Source: Spirochaetia bacterium (GTDB lineage: Bacteria; Spirochaetota; Spirochaetia; DSM-2461). Taken from it: a stretch of DNA of 64,000 nucleotides. The notes under the pieces were generated by a model. It did not search any database. It was not told the origin of the DNA and saw only the letters and a program-made list of their open reading frames with translations. The first letter of the stretch is position 1. Every line of letters starts with the position of its first letter. This document shows positions 3,063 to 38,601 of this stretch, in pieces. The position numbers and the translations under genes are program-made. The stretch covers positions 1,472,001-1,536,000 of the forward strand of contig OY764216.1 of the NCBI GenBank assembly GCA_963668315.1, in the 5' to 3' direction.

Positions 3063-4898
3063 CTATCTGTCCGGCTTCTTCCATCCCAGATCGGGTATGG
3101 CTTCCCACCGCTCCTTCAGGGTGAAGACGGCCTGTTTCGGCTGCCGTTCCCGGGTGAAGAGTCCCTTTTTGTTGCCCTGAACTCTGATTATCCCCTGGGA
3201 TGTGGCAAAGTCGGCAAAGTTCCAGGCCTGTTCTCCCGCCACCTGGGGATAGCGGTCAAATACATCATGGTTAGCCTGGTAGTACCGGACCTGATACTCT
3301 TCGGTGAACATTACCGTCCCCGTATCGTGAAGGCCTGCGACCGTATCCGCTCCGTATTCTGTGAAGATAATCGGCTTATCCGGCAGAGTCTCATGCCAAT
3401 GGTCCAGTTCCTTCGCCAGATAGGTCATCGCCCTGTCCAGGCGGGCCCCTCCTGAGAAATACCAGCCGTAGTAACGGTTCAGGCAGAGTACATCGGTCAG
3501 GGGAGCCACAAGGTCTTCCCGGCCGCTTCTGTTCTGCATAAGCACGCAGGTGGCCGGTCTTCCCGCCGGGTCGATCTTACGGGCCAGATCCAGCAGGGGG
3601 CCGAAATACTCATCGGCTCCCTCTGTCCAGGACTCCGGTTCGTTACCCACGGACCACATGACCACGGAGGGATGATTTTTATCCCGGCTGATCATCTCTC
3701 CTATCACATCCCTGTGGTGGTCCGCCGTTTTCATAGCTTCCCAGGTCTTCGGCATCTTCTCCCTGTCTCCGGAATGCATGGCAGCGCCGAATCCGACCAT
3801 CAGGCCGACAGCGGGGACTTCGTCTATCACCACGATTCCTTCCCGGTCGCAAAGGCGCATATACTCTTCGGAGTAGCAGTAGTGGCTGGTGCGGAGGGAA
3901 TTGCCTCCCATCCATTTGATAAGACGGATATCCTTGAGATTCATGACCGGATCCACCGCCCGGCCCCTCACGGCCGAATCCTCATGCTTTCCGAACCCCT
4001 TGAAATAGAAGGGCCTGCCGTTTATGAGAAACTGGCCGTCCTTTACTTCCACCCGGCGTATTCCGAAGGACTCGTCATACACATCCCGGAGAACTCCCCC
4101 TTCCGTCAGGCGGACTCTCAGGGTGTACAGATAAGCCTTGCGGGGATTCCAGAGAGTGACCTTCCCAATGCGGAGGGACGACCGCTGTCCTGTCTGACTG
4201 GCGACAACCCGGCTCTCCTCATCAATGACCTCTACCAGCACGTCTCCCTTTGAGGATGTCAGATCCACATTGTAATCCACAATTCCCTGATCGCCCTCAA
4301 AGTCGGAGAGGATCGTTATATCGGTGATGCGGTTCCTGGGGACGCGGTAAATCAGTATGTGGCGCTGAAGCCCGGCATAATTGAAAAAATCAAAGTTGGG
4401 GCTGTTCTCCACCACTTTGCCCCATCCGGGAATTTCCTCCTCTTTGTAGTTTCCCACGGGAAGGGTGGAGAAGTCGAGGATATTGCACAGAGCGACGGTG
4501 AGACGGTTCGTCCCCTTCTTTACTCTGCCGGTTATATCCGCTTCAAAGGGTGTGAATCCTCCGGTATGCTCCGTTATCTGCTCTCCGTTAAGAAAAACCT
4601 TAGCCCTGTGGGTGGCGCTTCCGAATCTGAGAATCAGCGATTCATCATCCTTCGGCGGCGCCAGGGAAAACTCCCTTTCGTACCAGACCCAGCCGCAGAA
4701 TTCCCGGTCTTTCTGGTCCTCGAACATATCGTTCCAGGCCGAGGGGACCGGCATGGAGATCGTCTCTTTCAGAGGGGCGCGGTAGATCTCCTTTTCCAGG
4801 CCTTCCGAATCCCGGCCTTCCCTGGCGTCAAAGCAGAAGCGCCATAGGCCGTCCAGGGAGTGGATATTCCGTGTTTCCGTTTCCAGGGGATAGAGCAT
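3063..4898 (-). CDS. uidA: Beta-glucuronidase (GH2)
   Basis: Typical start MLYPLETETR; FDFFNYAG, GFGKHED, RTSHY, WSVGNEP, TEYGAD, WNFADF and the GUS-specific GNKKG motif. Confidence 0.92.
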   Translation of the reverse strand: MLYPLETETRNIHSLDGLWRFCFDAREGRDSEGLEKEIYRAPLKETISMPVPSAWNDMFEDQKDREFCGWVWYEREFSLAPPKDDESLILRFGSATHRAKVFLNGEQITEHTGGFTPFEADITGRVKKGTNRLTVALCNILDFSTLPVGNYKEEEIPGWGKVVENSPNFDFFNYAGLQRHILIYRVPRNRITDITILSDFEGDQGIVDYNVDLTSSKGDVLVEVIDEESRVVASQTGQRSSLRIGKVTLWNPRKAYLYTLRVRLTEGGVLRDVYDESFGIRRVEVKDGQFLINGRPFYFKGFGKHEDSAVRGRAVDPVMNLKDIRLIKWMGGNSLRTSHYCYSEEYMRLCDREGIVVIDEVPAVGLMVGFGAAMHSGDREKMPKTWEAMKTADHHRDVIGEMISRDKNHPSVVMWSVGNEPESWTEGADEYFGPLLDLARKIDPAGRPATCVLMQNRSGREDLVAPLTDVLCLNRYYGWYFSGGARLDRAMTYLAKELDHWHETLPDKPIIFTEYGADTVAGLHDTGTVMFTEEYQVRYYQANHDVFDRYPQVAGEQAWNFADFATSQGIIRVQGNKKGLFTRERQPKQAVFTLKERWEAIPDLGWKKPDR

Positions 4899-31836: not shown

Positions 31837-33710
31837 AGGTCTTCCTTTTCAATCAGGGTTATGATTATGGATGTTCCCTTTCCCGGCGAGCTGTTCAGCA
31901 CCAGGTCGGAACCGGGGAAGGTCATCTTGAGCCTTTCCGTCACATTCCTGAGGCCTACGTGAGATTCGGTTTTTTTCGGATCAAACCCGACGCCCCCGTC
32001 GGTCAGGGTCAGGATAATTCTGCGGCGCCCGTCCCGGTAGTAGACTTCGCCCTTGAGGCTCACTTCCCCCCCCTCTTCACAGGGCTCGAGGCCGTGGACG
32101 ATGGCGTTCTCCACCAGGGGCTGCAGCAGGAGACGGGGAAGATGGACATTCCTCAGCTCCCCGGGAATGGAAAAGTCGTACCGGAGCCGGTTTCCGAAAC
32201 GGATTTTCTGCAGTTCGCAGTAGGTAATAAGAAAATCCGTTTCCTCCCCCAGGGTGGACCATTTTTCCTGATGGGTCACATAGCGGAGCATCTCCCGCAG
32301 GGAGAGAATCGCCTTCTCCAGCTGTTTCTGATCCCCCATGCGGTTCAGGCCGACGAAGCCGTTAAGAACGTTATAGATAAAATGGGGCTGAACCTGGGAC
32401 TGGAGCGCATTATATTCGGCATCCCTCTTTTCCAGGACTTCCCGGTATTTCGTATGGTTATCCAGCGCCAGGGAGACATAATCGGCAAAATTATTCATAC
32501 GGATGACGGACAGGTCGGAGAACTGTTTATCCCGGTCATCGATGACGGACATGAGAAGCCCGATAAGGGAACCATCAATGAGAAGGGGCAGAATGATTCT
32601 TTTCAGCGGCAGGGAGGAGGGCAGGGGATTTCCCCTGCGCAGCAGGGCGTACTCTTCTTCGGACAGGGGGAGAATCTCCTCCGTCGGATGGTCTCCCCCT
32701 TTGTGTACCTTGAGCACCATCTGGTGATTAATGGGCTCGTAAAGATAAACAGCCGCCCTGTCCGCCATGGTGTCATTGATGATCGTATCCGCCACCAGTT
32801 CCAGGACCTCCTCCCGGGAGGATCCTTCCACAAGGGACGTGCCCATATCACGGGTCAGATTCAGAATACCGTCGATATTGGCCTTCAAATCGGCGGAAAG
32901 GCTGTTGACGCTGACCAGCAGCCCGGTAAGTTCATCCTTGTCGTTTTTTTCTGAGGTATAGGTGAAATCTCCCCGGGCAATCCGGGAGAAGGCCTGGTTC
33001 ACCCGGGATATTTTCCTGATAATCTCCATGGAGAGGAGCCGGGCGTAAACAATGGACAGGCTGCCGGCGAAGAGACTGAACACGATGAAAGTCAGAAAGA
33101 GATTCCGCTCCAGCCTGAGGCTTTTCTCCCTGAAGGAGGAGAAAAAGTGGTTCATGTAACTTTCAAAGGTATTGGTAAAGTAATAGGAGGTATCCCGGAA
33201 TTCCTGGAAGAAGGGGTTCAGATCGGCATCAACCTGCATGGCCCGGTAAAGATTCTCTCCCTCCAGATCCATACCCTGAATGACCAGGAGAATGGAGGAC
33301 ATGGTATCGAGCCGTTTCAGGGCGCGCTCATTCAGAGTCAGGGCCGTATCGTAGCTGTCCTGAAGCTCATCCTCCTGAAAGATATCCATCTCCCTGTCGT
33401 CGAGGAAATCATCAAAGGTTTTCTGGTACTCCCTGACGGCCTTTTCCCAGGTCCTGAAGGTTACCAGAGAACGGGGAGAGTAGGTAAGGGAGCGTATCTG
33501 ACCGTATACCTGCGGGGCGAAAAGGTCGAAAACCAGATCCTTCATAAGCCCCATGACGCGCTGGGACTGGTTCAGGAGCTCCTGACCCAGAAATATGGTC
33601 TGATTCAGACGCTGAACCCTGTTGCCGTTCCAGAGGGACAGTCCCGTTATGGAAAGGAGGGAGAAAATCATGAGGCCGTTCAGAATGAGCAGTTTCCGCC
33701 GGATTTTCAT
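31833..33710 (-). CDS. YesM-like sensor histidine kinase (periplasmic sensor, HAMP, GAF-like insert)
   Basis: ALQSQVQPHFIYNVL, LQPLVENAIVHG, DGGVG, HVGLRNV. Confidence 0.9.
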   Translation of the reverse strand: MKIRRKLLILNGLMIFSLLSITGLSLWNGNRVQRLNQTIFLGQELLNQSQRVMGLMKDLVFDLFAPQVYGQIRSLTYSPRSLVTFRTWEKAVREYQKTFDDFLDDREMDIFQEDELQDSYDTALTLNERALKRLDTMSSILLVIQGMDLEGENLYRAMQVDADLNPFFQEFRDTSYYFTNTFESYMNHFFSSFREKSLRLERNLFLTFIVFSLFAGSLSIVYARLLSMEIIRKISRVNQAFSRIARGDFTYTSEKNDKDELTGLLVSVNSLSADLKANIDGILNLTRDMGTSLVEGSSREEVLELVADTIINDTMADRAAVYLYEPINHQMVLKVHKGGDHPTEEILPLSEEEYALLRRGNPLPSSLPLKRIILPLLIDGSLIGLLMSVIDDRDKQFSDLSVIRMNNFADYVSLALDNHTKYREVLEKRDAEYNALQSQVQPHFIYNVLNGFVGLNRMGDQKQLEKAILSLREMLRYVTHQEKWSTLGEETDFLITYCELQKIRFGNRLRYDFSIPGELRNVHLPRLLLQPLVENAIVHGLEPCEEGGEVSLKGEVYYRDGRRRIILTLTDGGVGFDPKKTESHVGLRNVTERLKMTFPGSDLVLNSSPGKGTSIIITLIEKEDL

Positions 33711-33837
33711 AGTCCACCCTATCATAACATATATTCAGCCATTGACCAGCTCTTTTTAAGCCGTCCCGCCGGGCAATATCCGTGAGGGAGAAGGAGGGTA
33801 TCGTTTTTTTATTTGGATGGGAAGGTTGAAAATTCAG

Positions 33838-33884
33838 TAAAAAAACGGCGGTCCCGGTCGGTCCATCACCGGCCGCGGCCGCCG
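33838..33884 (-). terminator. Intrinsic terminator of the CBS-EIIA-NhaD operon
   Basis: Long GC-rich imperfect stem at 33846-33884 followed by a T7 tract on the minus strand, 8 nt after the stop codon. Confidence 0.75.
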
Positions 33885-33892
33885 CAAAGGGG

Positions 33893-35167
33893 TCAATAGT
33901 AACGTATCATTATATAGGCGAAGCTTATGCCCAGACTCAGAAGAGTGATGGGAACGCCGTATTTCAGATAGCTTCCGAAAGAGAGGGACACGTTGTTTTT
34001 CTTGGCAAAGCCGAACATGATGACGTTGGCGGAAGCTCCGACGAGAGTTCCGTTGCCGCCCAGACAGGCGCCCAGGGAGAGGCTCCACCAGAGGGGGCCC
34101 AGTTCCGCGGCTGCATGACCGGTTCCCACCAGCTTGACCACGGGAATGAAGGTGGCCACCAGGGGAATATTATCGAGGATACCGGAGAAAATACCCGAGA
34201 AGAAGAGAAGAAGGCTGCTTGTCGCCTGCATCTCCCCCTGCGTCAGGTGGATCATCCATTCGGCCAGACTGTCAATGATTCCGGCGTATTCCAGAACGCC
34301 AACCATGATGAAAAGGCCGATGAAGAAGAGAATCGTATCCCATTCCACTTTCTTGAGCAGCTCCTCTATGTCGTTTTCAGACCAGATGATGAGAGCGCAG
34401 GCCCCGATGAGGGCGATGATGCTCGGCTCCGTTTCCAGGGCGCCGTGGAGGATGAACCCCAGAAGAACGAATCCCAGAACGACTAGGGATTTTTTCATCA
34501 GCTTCGGATTATGGATCATCTTCTTCTCATCCATTCTGAGAATGCGGTCCTTATTTTCCTGGGTTATGGTCAGGTACTTCCTGAAAATCAGCAGTAGCAC
34601 GAGAACGGTCACGACCGAAATTATCAGGACGACCGGCGCCACATTGGTGATGAAGGCCATAAAAGAGAGCTGGGCGGCCGATCCGATCATGATATTGGGG
34701 GGATCTCCGATCAGCGTGGCCGTACCGCCTATGTTGGACGCCAGAATCTCCGTGATGATGAAGGGGAGGGCATTAATCTCCATCTGGGTCGTCAGCAGCA
34801 GGGTAACGGGGGAGATCAGGAGGACCGTGGTGACATTATCGAGGAGGGCGGAGAAAATCGCCGTAATGAAAAAGAGAACCACGAGAAAGCTGACCGGATT
34901 GGCCTTTACCGCCTTGGCCGCCTTGATGGCAACAAATTCGAATACGCCGCACTGTTCGGTGATTTTCACAATCAGCATCATGCCCATGAGAAGGAAAATA
35001 ACGTTGGTATCGATATGTTCCACCGCTTCATGGAAGGGGATGAAGTGGAAGACCAAGTAAATACAGGCTCCCAGAAGCACGGCAATGGCTTTGTTTATCT
35101 TTTCCGTTACGAATAGTGTGTAAATGAGAATGAAAATTCCCAAAGCTAAAATGGTATGTATGTTCAT
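33893..35167 (-). CDS. ArsB/NhaD-family (ion transporter superfamily) permease
   Basis: SALLDNVTTVLL, ASNIGGTATLIGDPPNIMIG, VEWDTILFF, SLGACLGGNGTLVGASAN. Confidence 0.9.
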   Translation of the reverse strand: MNIHTILALGIFILIYTLFVTEKINKAIAVLLGACIYLVFHFIPFHEAVEHIDTNVIFLLMGMMLIVKITEQCGVFEFVAIKAAKAVKANPVSFLVVLFFITAIFSALLDNVTTVLLISPVTLLLTTQMEINALPFIITEILASNIGGTATLIGDPPNIMIGSAAQLSFMAFITNVAPVVLIISVVTVLVLLLIFRKYLTITQENKDRILRMDEKKMIHNPKLMKKSLVVLGFVLLGFILHGALETEPSIIALIGACALIIWSENDIEELLKKVEWDTILFFIGLFIMVGVLEYAGIIDSLAEWMIHLTQGEMQATSSLLLFFSGIFSGILDNIPLVATFIPVVKLVGTGHAAAELGPLWWSLSLGACLGGNGTLVGASANVIMFGFAKKNNVSLSFGSYLKYGVPITLLSLGISFAYIMIRYY

Positions 35168-36063
35168 TAAGGCCTCAGCATTTTATCTATAATCTGATTG
35201 GGATGTATAATTCCCTTAAGGTTATCCATGGGGTCCATAACAAGGAGATGGCGCCGGTTGCCCTTTATCATAAGAAAGAATATCTCGGGATAGCTGGCGT
35301 CGCTGCGGACAATATAGGGACGGTAATCCCGTTTGAACTCGCTGACCTTCAGCTCATTTTCCCGGCTCCAGAAAAACTTTACCGGCTTGAAATCCTGTAT
35401 GAGTGAGAGATCGCTCAGGCTGAAGACGTAATCGGGAAAGCCCGCCTTCAGGAGATCCACCAGATCGAGAACGCCGCAGAGCTTATTCGTACTGCGGGAC
35501 AGGATGGGAAGAAGGTAGACCGAGTGCTGTTTCATGAGGTCAAGAGCTCTTCCCACCGTATCGTCTTCATAAACGGTGGGCCACTTCTTCGCCAGGTCGG
35601 AAGCCTTGAGAGGCATTCCGGTGATATGGGTCGATTCGCTGATGACGCTCAGAATATCTTCCGGTTTCGAACTGCGGTTGAGGCGATCGGCCTCCTCTTT
35701 CATCAGTTTTCCGATATCCTGCAGAATGGCAAGATAGGCGTTTCCCTCGTTGCCGGAGGTCAGGATGGAAATAATGTAACGGATGCTGTTTCCATCGGGC
35801 AGGAGAAGGGGCTTTTTACAGCGGATAAACAGGATGTGGATCCCTTCTACCAGAGGACTGTGGTTATGGGGCATGACCGTATCGGCTCCGATCCAGGTGG
35901 ATCCGATTTTCTCACGCTGCTGTAAAAGGTCCAGCACTTTGTCCTTTCCCAGGGATGTGGATTCCCCGAATTGTTCCGCCAGGAAGAGAAGAGCCTCCTC
36001 CCAGTCTGAAAAATGTTTGTCCAGGAAAACTTTTTCCCGGGATAGGTACTTGCTAAACGGCAT
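35167..36063 (-). CDS. PTS EIIA-type domain fused to a CBS pair
   Basis: REKIGSTWIGADTVMPH matches the EIIA phospho-His motif; C-terminal DTVGRALDLM...LLPI...GVLDLVDLL is CBS-like. Confidence 0.8.
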   Translation of the reverse strand: MPFSKYLSREKVFLDKHFSDWEEALLFLAEQFGESTSLGKDKVLDLLQQREKIGSTWIGADTVMPHNHSPLVEGIHILFIRCKKPLLLPDGNSIRYIISILTSGNEGNAYLAILQDIGKLMKEEADRLNRSSKPEDILSVISESTHITGMPLKASDLAKKWPTVYEDDTVGRALDLMKQHSVYLLPILSRSTNKLCGVLDLVDLLKAGFPDYVFSLSDLSLIQDFKPVKFFWSRENELKVSEFKRDYRPYIVRSDASYPEIFFLMIKGNRRHLLVMDPMDNLKGIIHPNQIIDKMLRP

Positions 36064-36511
36064 AAAGGCGCTCCCTGTTGCCTACGGGCAGTATTTTAAG
36101 AAGGCTGTCGACGGAAACTTCGCCGAGGAGGCAGCCTTTCTTGTCCAAAAGAGGCAGATAGTTCTGATCGCTTTCCACGAAAAGAGCCAGGGCTTCGGCC
36201 ATGCTCTGGCCGGGCGTCAGGTAGGGAAAACGGCTATCCATAAGGTCAATGACCCGGATCTTGTCCAGCCTGTCATCCAGTTCGGGATCGAAGGCGATAC
36301 TTTCGAGGGTACAGTAGAGAGGAGCCAGAAATTCAAGAATCTTCGTCTTCTTTATGACTCCCTGAAGCTGTTCCTGGCAGTCTACGATATAAAAATTGTT
36401 AATTTTCCAGTTAGCCATAAAGGGGTGGAGAATGTCTTTTAATGTGGCGTTTACGGGAAAGAATACCGGTCCCCGGCTGTCTGTTATTTCTGATACTGTG
36501 ATATTTTTCAT
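36053..36511 (-). CDS. Stand-alone CBS-pair protein
   Basis: YIVD...LQGVI and EALALFVE...LPLLDKKGCLLGEVS repeats; SD AAGGA 6 nt upstream. Confidence 0.8.
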   Translation of the reverse strand: MKNITVSEITDSRGPVFFPVNATLKDILHPFMANWKINNFYIVDCQEQLQGVIKKTKILEFLAPLYCTLESIAFDPELDDRLDKIRVIDLMDSRFPYLTPGQSMAEALALFVESDQNYLPLLDKKGCLLGEVSVDSLLKILPVGNRERLYAV

Positions 36512-36563
36512 TTTAATTCCTTATCCTTCTGTAATTAAGAGTTTTTTCTTTGTGCGGTGAAAA

Positions 36564-36923
36564 TCAGATAAGGACGGGGGGAGCTCTCAGATGAAGAAAC
36601 TGCAGATGGGAGGAGGAGGCATGACCCAGAGACCGGAAAATCTTGAGCCTGTGCTTGACGCCATGGGTGTGGTGGATGGCCGCCAGGGCCAGGGCCAGGG
36701 CCAGGTTGTGGGGCGCCGATTCCCTGCTGCTTTCTTCGTTCTCTTCAGATCCGACGTTTTCTTCCCCTTCCAGCAGAACCAGGTCATCCAGGGGTAAATT
36801 TTCCCCGGCTCTGGAAAAATAGGCATATCCCGTATCGGATATCTCTTCCAGGTGAAGAGGAGCTGCCTCCCAGGCAAGGAGGAAGGCGGGAAGTAAAAGA
36901 AAGGTGAAAAGAATCTTTCTCAT
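36564..36923 (-). CDS. Putative RAPP-type ribosome-arrest leader protein (119 aa)
   Basis: Signal-like MRKILFTFLLLPAFLLA, acidic linker, LALALALAAI segment, His-rich stretch, ends LRAPPVLI*. Promoter TTGACT (36953-36958) -17- TACACT (36930-36935). Confidence 0.65.
   Translation of the reverse strand: MRKILFTFLLLPAFLLAWEAAPLHLEEISDTGYAYFSRAGENLPLDDLVLLEGEENVGSEENEESSRESAPHNLALALALAAIHHTHGVKHRLKIFRSLGHASSSHLQFLHLRAPPVLI
36682..36705. repeat. (GCCAGG)4 in-frame hexamer repeat
   Basis: Four perfect copies encoding the Leu-Ala run on the minus strand. Confidence 0.9.
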
Positions 36924-37002
36924 ACTGGCAGTGTAGGCAAATCGGGGGGAGAAGTCAAGAGAATCAACGGACAAAATAGGACAATAACGGACAAAGTTCG
37001 AA

Positions 37003-37521
37003 TCACTGGTATTCAAGGGGGCGGGGAAAAAAGGTGGTAAATGTGAGGAAAAGAGCCTCTACCCCCTTCTTCGGGGAGTTTTTCTCCATCTGGACCAGTT
37101 TCCCGTTGAAAAAGAAGCCGAAATCGGCCCGGCTGCGTCTCGGCAGTCCGCGGGACATCATACTATCCTCTTCGGAACGGTGATAATCGTAGATCCGGTA
37201 GTTCAATGCCGTCAGATCGTCAAAGGAAAAAAGCTGTTCCCGGTAGAGAAAAATCAGCCCCTTTCTAATGCGGCAAATCTCCTCTTTCCTGTCAAAGCTT
37301 ACCGAGTACCGGTACATGCACCCCAGAAAAAGAAGGAGGGGCATGAGAAAGGTATTGATCTTCCCCGCCAGGGACGCCTTCGAGAAATCCTCTCCGCTCA
37401 TGTTTGTGGCAAAGGTCAGAAGAACGGAGAGAAAGAGAAAAATCAGAATTCCCCGCAGGAAGGGATTCATGGAGAAGCTGAGAGTGTCTTTCCTGATTAT
37501 GCGGGCCGAATAGAACGTCAT
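37003..37521 (-). CDS. Hypothetical membrane protein (two TM), last gene of the peptide ABC operon
   Basis: Starts 3 nt after the oppF-like stop; two hydrophobic segments then a soluble tail. Confidence 0.7.
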   Translation of the reverse strand: MTFYSARIIRKDTLSFSMNPFLRGILIFLFLSVLLTFATNMSGEDFSKASLAGKINTFLMPLLLFLGCMYRYSVSFDRKEEICRIRKGLIFLYREQLFSFDDLTALNYRIYDYHRSEEDSMMSRGLPRRSRADFGFFFNGKLVQMEKNSPKKGVEALFLTFTTFFPRPLEYQ

Positions 37522-37524
37522 GGC

Positions 37525-38601
37525 CTACTCGTAAAGCCAGCAGGCGACTTTGTGATTCGGACCGATCTCCTTCAGGGGGGGCATCTCCTTTTTACACTTC
37601 TCCATGCATTGGGCACAGCGCGGGTGGAAGTGGCAGCCCGACGGGGGATTGATGGGGGAGGGGACATCCCCTTCCAGCAGAATCCGTTTCCTCTTCGTTT
37701 CCGGATCGGGCACGGGCACGGCGGATATAAGCGCTTTCGTATAGGGGTGGTACCGGTTCTCGTAGAGAGATTTCCGGTCGGCGATCTCCACGATTCTTCC
37801 CAGATACATGACCGCCACGCTGTCGGAAAAGTACTCCACCACGCTCAGATCGTGGGCGATGAAAAGGTAGGTCAGATCCAGTTTTGATTTCAGATCGTTT
37901 AACAGTTCCAGAATCTGCACCTGTATGGAAACGTCCAAGGCGGACACGGGCTCATCAAGCACGAGCAGTTTGGGTTCCAGGGCCAGGGCGCGGGCGATCC
38001 CGATCCTCTGCCTCTGGCCGCCGGAAAACTCGTGGGGATAGCGGTTGATGTAGGAGGGGTCGAGACCGGTGGCCTCCATCAGGTACTCCACCCGTTCCCT
38101 TCTGAGGCGGCTGTCCTTGAATACTCGATGGATATCGAGCCCTTCGGCGATTATGTCTCCCACGGGAATACGGGGATTAAGAGAGCCGAAGGGATCCTGG
38201 AACATCATCTGGAAATCGCTTCTGGCCGCCCTCAGGTCCTTTTTATTGAAGGAGTAATGGTCATACTGATTTTTAAGGTGTTTCCACTCTTCCTCATTTT
38301 CCCGGTTGCCCTCTTTGATCTGGGCTTCCAGTTCTTTCATGCGGGCGATGATTTCCGGCTCCACATCAAAGAACATCTCCCCTTCCGTGGGCTGGTACAG
38401 GGCGATCAGAGTCCGCCCGGCCGTGGTTTTCCCGCAGCCCGATTCCCCCACCAGGCCGAAGGTTTTGCCCCGCTCTATGGTGAAGCTGATGCCGTCCACC
38501 GCCTTCACATGGCCCACCGTTTTTCGAAAGATGCCCGCTTTGACGGGAAAGTATTTTTTCAGATTGTATACTTCCAGCAGATTTTTATTCTTTTCCGCCA
38601 T
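37525..38601 (-). CDS. oppF: Oligopeptide/dipeptide ABC ATP-binding protein (OppF/DppF)
   Basis: GESGCGKTT, YPHEFSGGQRQRI, DEPVSALD, PSPINPPSGCHFHPRC. Confidence 0.88.
   Translation of the reverse strand: MAEKNKNLLEVYNLKKYFPVKAGIFRKTVGHVKAVDGISFTIERGKTFGLVGESGCGKTTAGRTLIALYQPTEGEMFFDVEPEIIARMKELEAQIKEGNRENEEEWKHLKNQYDHYSFNKKDLRAARSDFQMMFQDPFGSLNPRIPVGDIIAEGLDIHRVFKDSRLRRERVEYLMEATGLDPSYINRYPHEFSGGQRQRIGIARALALEPKLLVLDEPVSALDVSIQVQILELLNDLKSKLDLTYLFIAHDLSVVEYFSDSVAVMYLGRIVEIADRKSLYENRYHPYTKALISAVPVPDPETKRKRILLEGDVPSPINPPSGCHFHPRCAQCMEKCKKEMPPLKEIGPNHKVACWLYE

Follow-up and report, generated by a model that had tools for sequence, protein, structure and literature searches.

What does a short open reading frame that ends in the arrest motif R-A-P-P do directly upstream of an operon for ion transport in a spirochaete? 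The question is raised by the window, as we call the whole 64,000-nucleotide stretch of a Spirochaetia bacterium (contig OY764216.1) analysed here, for which a sequence-only reading had proposed a leader peptide that stalls its own ribosome and thereby switches on the genes behind it. Congruent with this proposal, we consider it likely that the leader is a force-released arrest peptide, and that a ribosome stalled on it would melt a predicted helix over a CBS gene's Shine-Dalgarno (SD) sequence, inducing the operon when the export force falls.

The leader, its promoter, the helix and the genes behind them are all encoded on the minus strand. The predicted arrest peptide is a 119-aa ORF (36564..36923) with the R-A-P-P codons, aa 113-116, at 36576..36587, followed directly by V-L-I and the stop codon; these coordinates are as originally claimed (36923-36564, with RAPP at 36587-36576). 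With the stall register borrowed from ApdA/ApdP (PMC10951233), Pro115 (36581-36579) would occupy the P site and Pro116 the A site. The N-terminus is signal-like as described, MRK being followed by hydrophobic residues 4-17 (36861..36923; 11-residue hydropathy 2.5), and a basic and hydrophobic N-terminus is found in all 17 aligned leaders by hydropathy, a measure that does not tell cleaved from anchored forms. The second hydrophobic run pointed out in the sequence-only reading is present, but no role or conservation could be attached to it: LALALALAAI, aa 74-83 (36675..36704), lies 29 residues before the Arg, is encoded by a short tandem repeat, and is missing in the 73%-identical homolog P0002 and in the other leaders. 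We do not regard it as functional, and a transmembrane sensor was rejected on the same grounds, with 19-residue hydropathy at or below 0.7.

A sigma70-type promoter, TTGACT-17-TACACT (36930..36958), ends 6 nt before the leader ATG, confirming that the ORF has a promoter-like site of its own (36958-36930). Taken alone, neither promoter nor motif is exceptional. The window holds 7 promoter-like sites versus 4.5+/-1.8 in shuffles, and a six-frame scan of the genome gives 11 ORFs of at least 40 aa ending in RAPP, similar to scrambled words. Both rise above chance because they are conserved in relatives, all 17 leaders having a TTGA hexamer 34-37 nt ahead of the ATG. The leader mRNA is likely leaderless judging from this spacing, and all 17 leaders have the same layout. 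As a special trait of the leader the layout was dismissed, since it is frequent in this genome, where 110 ORFs carry TTGA..-16/18-TA...T 6-7 nt before the ATG, versus 5-25 at four other offsets.

Directly upstream of the -35 element, three phased TTGTCC hexamers with a 10-nt period (36969..36994, minus strand) form a likely, sequence-based candidate for a transcription-factor site. A loose pattern picks up the triple repeat at 9 of 15 leader loci; the strict pattern has two matches in the genome, as does the reversed control. The second strict site (G000:C1:1135391-1135416) precedes EIIA and Na+/H+-exchanger-CBS genes, and is found before the same genes in two further genomes (G001 and G022). 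Written as WWGTCY with a 10-nt period, the repeat heads both the leader operon and this separate EIIA and Na+/H+-exchanger-CBS operon, and it recurs in L091 and L093. The shared repeat suggests that the two operons may form one regulon, and its occurrence before both is a new observation. Candidate binders are HTH_17-EIIA fusions, which lie in the operon in L039, L050 and L053 and are present in two copies in the genome of the window; the HTH_17 family binds head-to-tail repeats. One of the two copies (G000:C1:32612-33301) lies directly behind genes which we take to be look-alikes of F-type ATP synthase beta/epsilon, a further hint of ion-motive-force control. Between an oligopeptide ABC operon and the leader, a 172-aa ORF (37003-37521) without a Pfam family is found, at the same place also in three genomes of the same genus (55-59% identity).

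The first gene after the leader starts at 36511, 52 nt past the leader, and encodes a stand-alone CBS-pair protein of 152 aa (36053..36511; PF00571, E 6e-14), presumably the gene directly controlled by the leader. Overlapping it by 11 nt is a PTS EIIA-CBS fusion of 298 aa (35167..36063; PF00359, E 2e-19; PF00571, E 3e-13), followed by a 424-aa CitMHS/ArsB/NhaD-like permease of the ion-transporter superfamily (33893..35167; PF03600, 288 bits). The permease had been called NhaD-type, a label that is too specific because all nine of its NCBIfam matches fall under their cut-offs, including NhaD itself (TIGR00775, 76.3 bits versus 577.1), NF038006 (43.8 versus 80) and the best of them, MamN (207 versus 500). 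The best solved relative is ArsB (E 9e-13). At aa 110 and 332, the places taken by S-N-T in DASS carriers, the permease shows D-N motifs, which would agree better with coupling to protons or cations than with the binding of carboxylates. EIIA and Na+/H+-exchanger-CBS genes are found inside the leader operon in L039, L041 and L043, and the targets look like cation-handling genes by sequence. The CBS proteins might be controlled by c-di-AMP: a DAC domain is present in the genome, yet the stand-alone CBS protein scores 31 bits against CbpB, under the cut-off of 125.

Database searches placed the leader in no known family. No Pfam family matched at E<=0.1, DUF2946 included, and NCBIfam returned only two matches at E 0.02-0.06, far under cut-off; Rfam over 33000-38000 gave a single match (E 0.91, 17.9 bits versus a gathering score of 174.8) and thus no known riboswitch or cis-regulatory RNA. 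A single-sequence search found only the leader itself and P0002, and tblastn recovered none of the related leaders, which were located by position before the operon. In the ESM Atlas the leader falls with unnamed clusters of 117-122 aa at 0.95; CzcI/DUF6769, at 0.94, shares few features and serves as a lead only.

We then turned to the operon in other spirochaetes. The transporter was matched in 27 of 61 relatives and in 26 of 401 genomes sampled from the phylum, with relatives at 70-86% identity in Spirochaetaceae, Spirochaetales, Oceanispirochaeta and Sphaerochaetaceae. The 55 loci compared comprise the window, 26 relatives, 20 of 23 further phylum matches (G266, G155 and G133 left out), 3 of 9 named loci (six being repeats of earlier stretches) and 5 metagenome loci. 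A stand-alone CBS gene is present in 21 of them, one with too little upstream DNA, and a leader precedes it in all 20 evaluable operons (10 RAPP, 1 RGPP, 8 KAPP and 1 HSPP); the CBS genes of L101 and L102 and the contig-cut L101 leader were read by hand rather than from automatic labels. Among the 34 loci without the gene, 3 are too short, and a leader was found in only 2 of the other 31 (L043 and L079). The upstream ORFs of homologous operons keep the hydrophobic N-terminus and the C-terminal motif, RAPP or RGPP in 11 of the 20 CBS-headed cases.

Besides the window, homologous leaders are found in 21 loci. They are only 13-45% identical to that of the window; 16 of 17 are 111-122 aa long, and in the alignment of 17 only M1, P115 and P116 are invariant, conservation of A114 reaching 90% or more. 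The mature region lacks the kind of conservation seen in a folded domain. The source data of PMC12992588 show a strong avoidance of RAPP by the proteomes of Spirochaetota (mean bias 0.11), so its retention in the leaders points to selection. A family profile covers 27 leader clusters at 50% identity, and 18 of its matches without an exact copy among the 17 leaders all end in RAPP, RGPP or KAPP and carry the acidic patch described below; they were not counted as independent because the profile selects both traits and some are seeds or near-copies.

In a FastTree of 54 transporters the loci with a leader are spread over at least three separate clades, and one locus, L031, lacks both the leader and the CBS gene while its sister L033 has both. 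Judging from these loci, leader and CBS gene behave as a cassette, of which L031 is a natural deletion control. The operon there (L031:4000-4950) begins at EIIA-CBS; by eye, it has repeats of a similar kind, a site resembling a promoter and a small 5' hairpin. In L043 (2382-2594) a 71-aa HTH_17 ORF that lacks the EIIA part comes next after the leader; CBS gene and helix are both missing, and the locus is possibly a decayed cassette. The L084 leader (3730-4083) combines a signal, an acidic patch and HSPP, and a CBS gene follows it at about 200 nt.

The helix proposed to mask the SD is formed by a 5' arm at 36566..36574, +8 to +16 from the first P-site base and with the leader stop codon in or beside it, and a 3' arm at 36518..36526, which contains the SD UAAGGA 6 nt before the AUG of the CBS gene. 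As stated in the sequence-only reading, UCCUUAUC (36574-36567) is complementary at every position to GAUAAGGA (36525-36518), and a ninth base pair, U36566.G36526, is present in the MFE structure. Folding agreed in four of five windows holding both arms (pair probability 0.75-1.0); in the fifth (36490-36650) the SD is contested by the upstream stretch UCCUCCUCCC, and the helix probability falls to about 0.23. When a stalled ribosome was modelled as blocking P-12 to P+15, in one fixed register, the predicted cost of opening the SD in the window fell from 7.5 to 1.8 kcal/mol, a gain of 5.7. The gain drops to 0.5 kcal/mol with 30 nt of upstream mRNA free, because UCCUCCUCCC can capture the SD, and the switch model needs this stretch covered or beyond reach. 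As a conserved alternative anti-SD UCCUCCUCCC is doubtful, a relative about 90% identical differing at 36612, 36618 and 36619.

Across the family, a footprint gain of at least 3 kcal/mol is predicted for 15 of 21 leaders versus 15 of 243 control pairs of genes lying 40-80 nt apart, the latter being drawn from rough gene calls in the genome of the window alone. The first set gave 14 of 15, with the count reaching 15 of 21 after six later loci (L084 is left out); by motif, the gain is seen in 10 of 13 RAPP/RGPP and 5 of 8 KAPP leaders. The six without it are L043, L067, L079 and L101-L103, and the leaders not followed by a CBS gene show none (L043 0.0, L079 0.4). The helix is re-formed with different letters and registers between loci, with the RAPP codons themselves sometimes paired, and plain DNA alignment is uninformative for covariation because the register shifts; partner permutation was used instead. 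Own anti-SD/SD duplexes average -13.2 kcal/mol versus -9.6+/-0.6 with permuted partners (15 loci, whose relatedness inflates the significance), while per-locus shuffles are weak, with p=0.07 in the window and p<0.05 in 5 of 15 loci. In the relative about 90% identical, none of the 40 substitutions covered, out of 93, lies in the helix arms, the one in RAPP is synonymous and indels are confined to the loop.

The locus displays several features by which RAPP arrest leaders are recognised: the ORF is below 300 aa with RAPP near its C-terminus, it lies directly before a co-directional gene and keeps the motif while the rest diverges, and a predicted SD-masking stem has its 5' arm under the stalled ribosome. 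It departs from strict monitoring substrates of Sec or YidC in its downstream genes, which encode CBS, EIIA-CBS and permease rather than a protein-localisation component. From the ORF, the motif, the complementarity and their conservation, which are read directly from the sequences, we infer arrest, release, induction and a signal as follows. The leaderless mRNA would be translated and the leader signal would engage SecYEG; the ribosome would stall with Pro115 in the P site, cover +8 to +16 and hence the 5' arm, and free the SD of the CBS gene, with the EIIA-CBS and permease genes following via overlap coupling. Once the chain is pulled, the stall would end, termination would occur three codons on and the helix would re-form. 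A drop in ion-motive force should then raise the operon, under either of the force sources considered below.

The case for this model is that leaders as divergent as 13-45% keep motif, N-terminus and an SD-masking helix under the predicted footprint, and every comparative analysis run here agreed with the proposed switch, with the second hydrophobic run removed from the mechanism. All seven RAPP/RGPP leaders of S. lividans examined in PMC12992588 (section 14) arrested; RAPP alone is insufficient, arrest being context- and ribosome-dependent (sections 14-15). For sensing through export force VemP sets a precedent, with Na+ as the condition (PMC5449182). The case against includes the six leaders without gain, the weak per-locus shuffles, the possible capture of the SD by UCCUCCUCCC, the eight KAPP loci, an acidic centroid somewhat past the model peak and the roughness of the control set. 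On balance, the leader is real and well conserved, and probably a functional arrest leader.

The KAPP leaders (L033, L063, L064, L066 and L101-L104, with profile members P0009, P0012, P0023, P0025, P0027 and P0029) form one subclade on the transporter tree (support 0.8), which includes L031. Lys is preceded by Asn in every KAPP leader seen, whereas RAPP is mostly preceded by Leu, and the N-KAPP pairing holds across leaders only 23-88% identical to one another. As Arg is irreplaceable in ApcA, ApdA and ApdP (PMC12992588, section 7), N-KAPP either still arrests through some compensation or has decayed into a polyproline pause; the helix loss in L101-L103 fits decay there. No report of KAPP stalling was found in a literature search conducted largely without subscription journals, and the N-KAPP clade is new relative to the catalogued RAPP/RGPP leaders.

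The sequence-only reading had linked the switch to ion-motive force, for which an acidic patch not described in it offers a concrete but unproven handle. In the window the patch spans E52-E68 (36720..36770), 48-64 residues before the A-site Pro, and is a candidate for a voltage-pulled segment. Averaged over 17 leaders, net charge is lowest 46-60 residues before the Arg and near zero in the last 45. At least five D/E in a 12-mer within aa 45-76 are found in 22 of 24 leaders versus 88 of 622 signal-bearing proteins of the genome, and in 23 of 24 a distance of 50-60 residues separates the acidic centroid from the A-site Pro. L079 has no patch. What is kept of the patch is its composition and its spacing to the stall site rather than its sequence; it is new relative both to the earlier reading and to the catalogued class.

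With a five-Asp segment, force peaks at L+n of about 50 in a manner that depends on membrane potential, in experiment and simulation (bioRxiv 10.1101/310698); the leader patch overlaps this distance but is centred 0-10 residues further out. By analogy, its position suggests a voltage gauge, in which the potential pulls acidic residues through SecY. Tentatively, we ascribe the pull to the membrane potential, which would act on the patch during its passage through SecY; the general export force of SecA/SecDF is about as likely to provide it. More speculative is the broader idea that the leaders are natural voltage gauges, in which the potential would pull the patch and cancel the RAPP arrest so that depolarisation switches the operon on, that the same applies to Asp-rich RAPP leaders before CBS genes elsewhere, and that N-KAPP is an Arg-free arrest chemistry. 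By eye, many leaders before CBS genes in the table of Fujiwara 2025 have Asp-rich clusters about 38-49 residues before the motif; with three rows counted, this is an impression rather than a test. The literature search, largely without subscription journals, retrieved engineered constructs only and no natural voltage-sensing leader.

Not every arrangement of these features requires sensing. Any ribosome finishing the leader might open the helix by plain translational coupling, since translation of the leader ends in or next to the 5' arm, and transient opening of the stem is assumed even for a mutant of another leader that does not arrest (PMC10987492). RAPP or KAPP would then only prolong the dwell at a fixed level, with KAPP and HSPP perhaps ordinary polyproline pauses and regulation left to the candidate transcription-factor site at the triple repeat. 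Coupling gives no reason why the signal segment is retained, why length hardly varies (111-122 aa in 16 of 17) or why the acidic patch keeps its position, and we find it improbable.

Slightly less credible still is an arrest switch released by a ligand, with the patch binding Na+, K+, Mg2+ or Ca2+ or becoming protonated in the periplasm, as proposed with copper for CruR. The Glu-rich patch is indeed the sole conserved internal feature of the leaders, the downstream targets resemble cation-handling genes, and metal-sensing RAPP leaders are described in sections 13-15 of PMC12992588. Invariant ligand positions are however absent, composition and distance being all that is kept, and the 17 aligned leaders contain no conserved Cys or His column. 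Finally, an ordinary small exported protein or a non-gene with coincidental motif and helix is already strongly disfavoured and very improbable. The chance occurrence of short RAPP-ending ORFs, the non-significant single-locus duplex and an ESM Atlas recognition (2211) under the usual level for known families would speak for it. Against it, relatives only 13-45% identical repeat an open frame that keeps its length, promoter spacing, N-terminus and C-terminal motif and that heads the operon in every case, around a mature region not conserved like a folded domain.

The force-released arrest leader remains the likeliest reading. Its cassette of leader, helix and CBS gene is a compact test case, offering losses (L031, L043 and L079), variants (RGPP, N-KAPP and HSPP) and one positioned acidic patch that predicts the force source. 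If membrane potential is that source, the cell would read its own voltage via a translating ribosome and translate it into ion-transporter levels; if not, the leader is one more well-supported member of a catalogued class.

How, then, does it compare with known systems? The claim that no arrest peptide was known for this type of target did not hold, as Fujiwara 2025, a study reporting small RAPP/RGPP proteins ahead of genes of many kinds, lists RAPP leaders before both CBS and cation:proton antiporter genes in its data. In the source data of Fig. 4B (PMC12992588), "CBS domain-containing protein" has 266 RAPP versus 94 AAPP (11.1-fold) and "cation:proton antiporter" 75 versus 81 (3.6-fold), both top-30 classes. 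Row 792 of the list (EXM22_RS02315) is P0005, matched by our family profile at E 4e-15. We examined 60 of 143 CBS and 30 of 90 antiporter rows, and nearly all other CBS rows among the 60 precede CBS genes of about 185-200 aa, versus 152 aa here. The words CBS and antiporter are absent from the main text of that paper, and its Discussion leaves open whether non-Sec RAPP leaders regulate downstream genes and what gives the pulling force. Neither a tested arrest peptide on an ion transporter nor any arrest peptide of a spirochaete was found in our search, again largely without subscription journals.

With the RAPP/RGPP uORFs of Fujiwara 2025 (EMBO J) the leader shares a length below 300 aa, a putative localisation signal, a C-terminal RAPP and a co-directional CBS gene behind it, while sections 7 and 13-15 of that paper hold no test of the CBS or antiporter classes and no analysis of operon, helix, patch or KAPP. 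The leader family is thus a new spirochaete family inside a catalogued but untested class. The CruR/DUF2946 leaders also carry a C-terminal RAPP before a non-Sec transport gene, with arrest shown in vitro (PMC12992588, section 14); here, on the other hand, there is no DUF2946 match, no conserved Cys or His, and no TonB-dependent or copper gene downstream. ApdA, ApdP and SecM (PMC10951233, PMC10987492) share the predicted stall, with RAP occupying the P site and Pro the A site, a signal-like N-terminus and an SD-masking stem, but they precede sec or yidC genes, no sequence likeness is expected or found beyond the motif, and one clade of the leaders here has N-KAPP. VemP, which controls secDF2 in Vibrio alginolyticus (PMC5449182), resembles the proposed switch in its exported leader, its SD-masking stem and its response to an ion condition, low Na+, via lost pulling force; it uses a different arrest sequence, senses through SecDF1 activity and induces a Sec component, whereas here the target is an ion-transport operon and the force may act on acidic residues. 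Closest to that last feature are the engineered SecM force sensors with a five-Asp segment (bioRxiv 10.1101/310698), laboratory constructs in which, as predicted for the leader, an acidic run lies about 50 residues from the arrest site and downstream of a Sec-targeting segment, the leader patch being the longer of the two and, as noted, lying somewhat further out.
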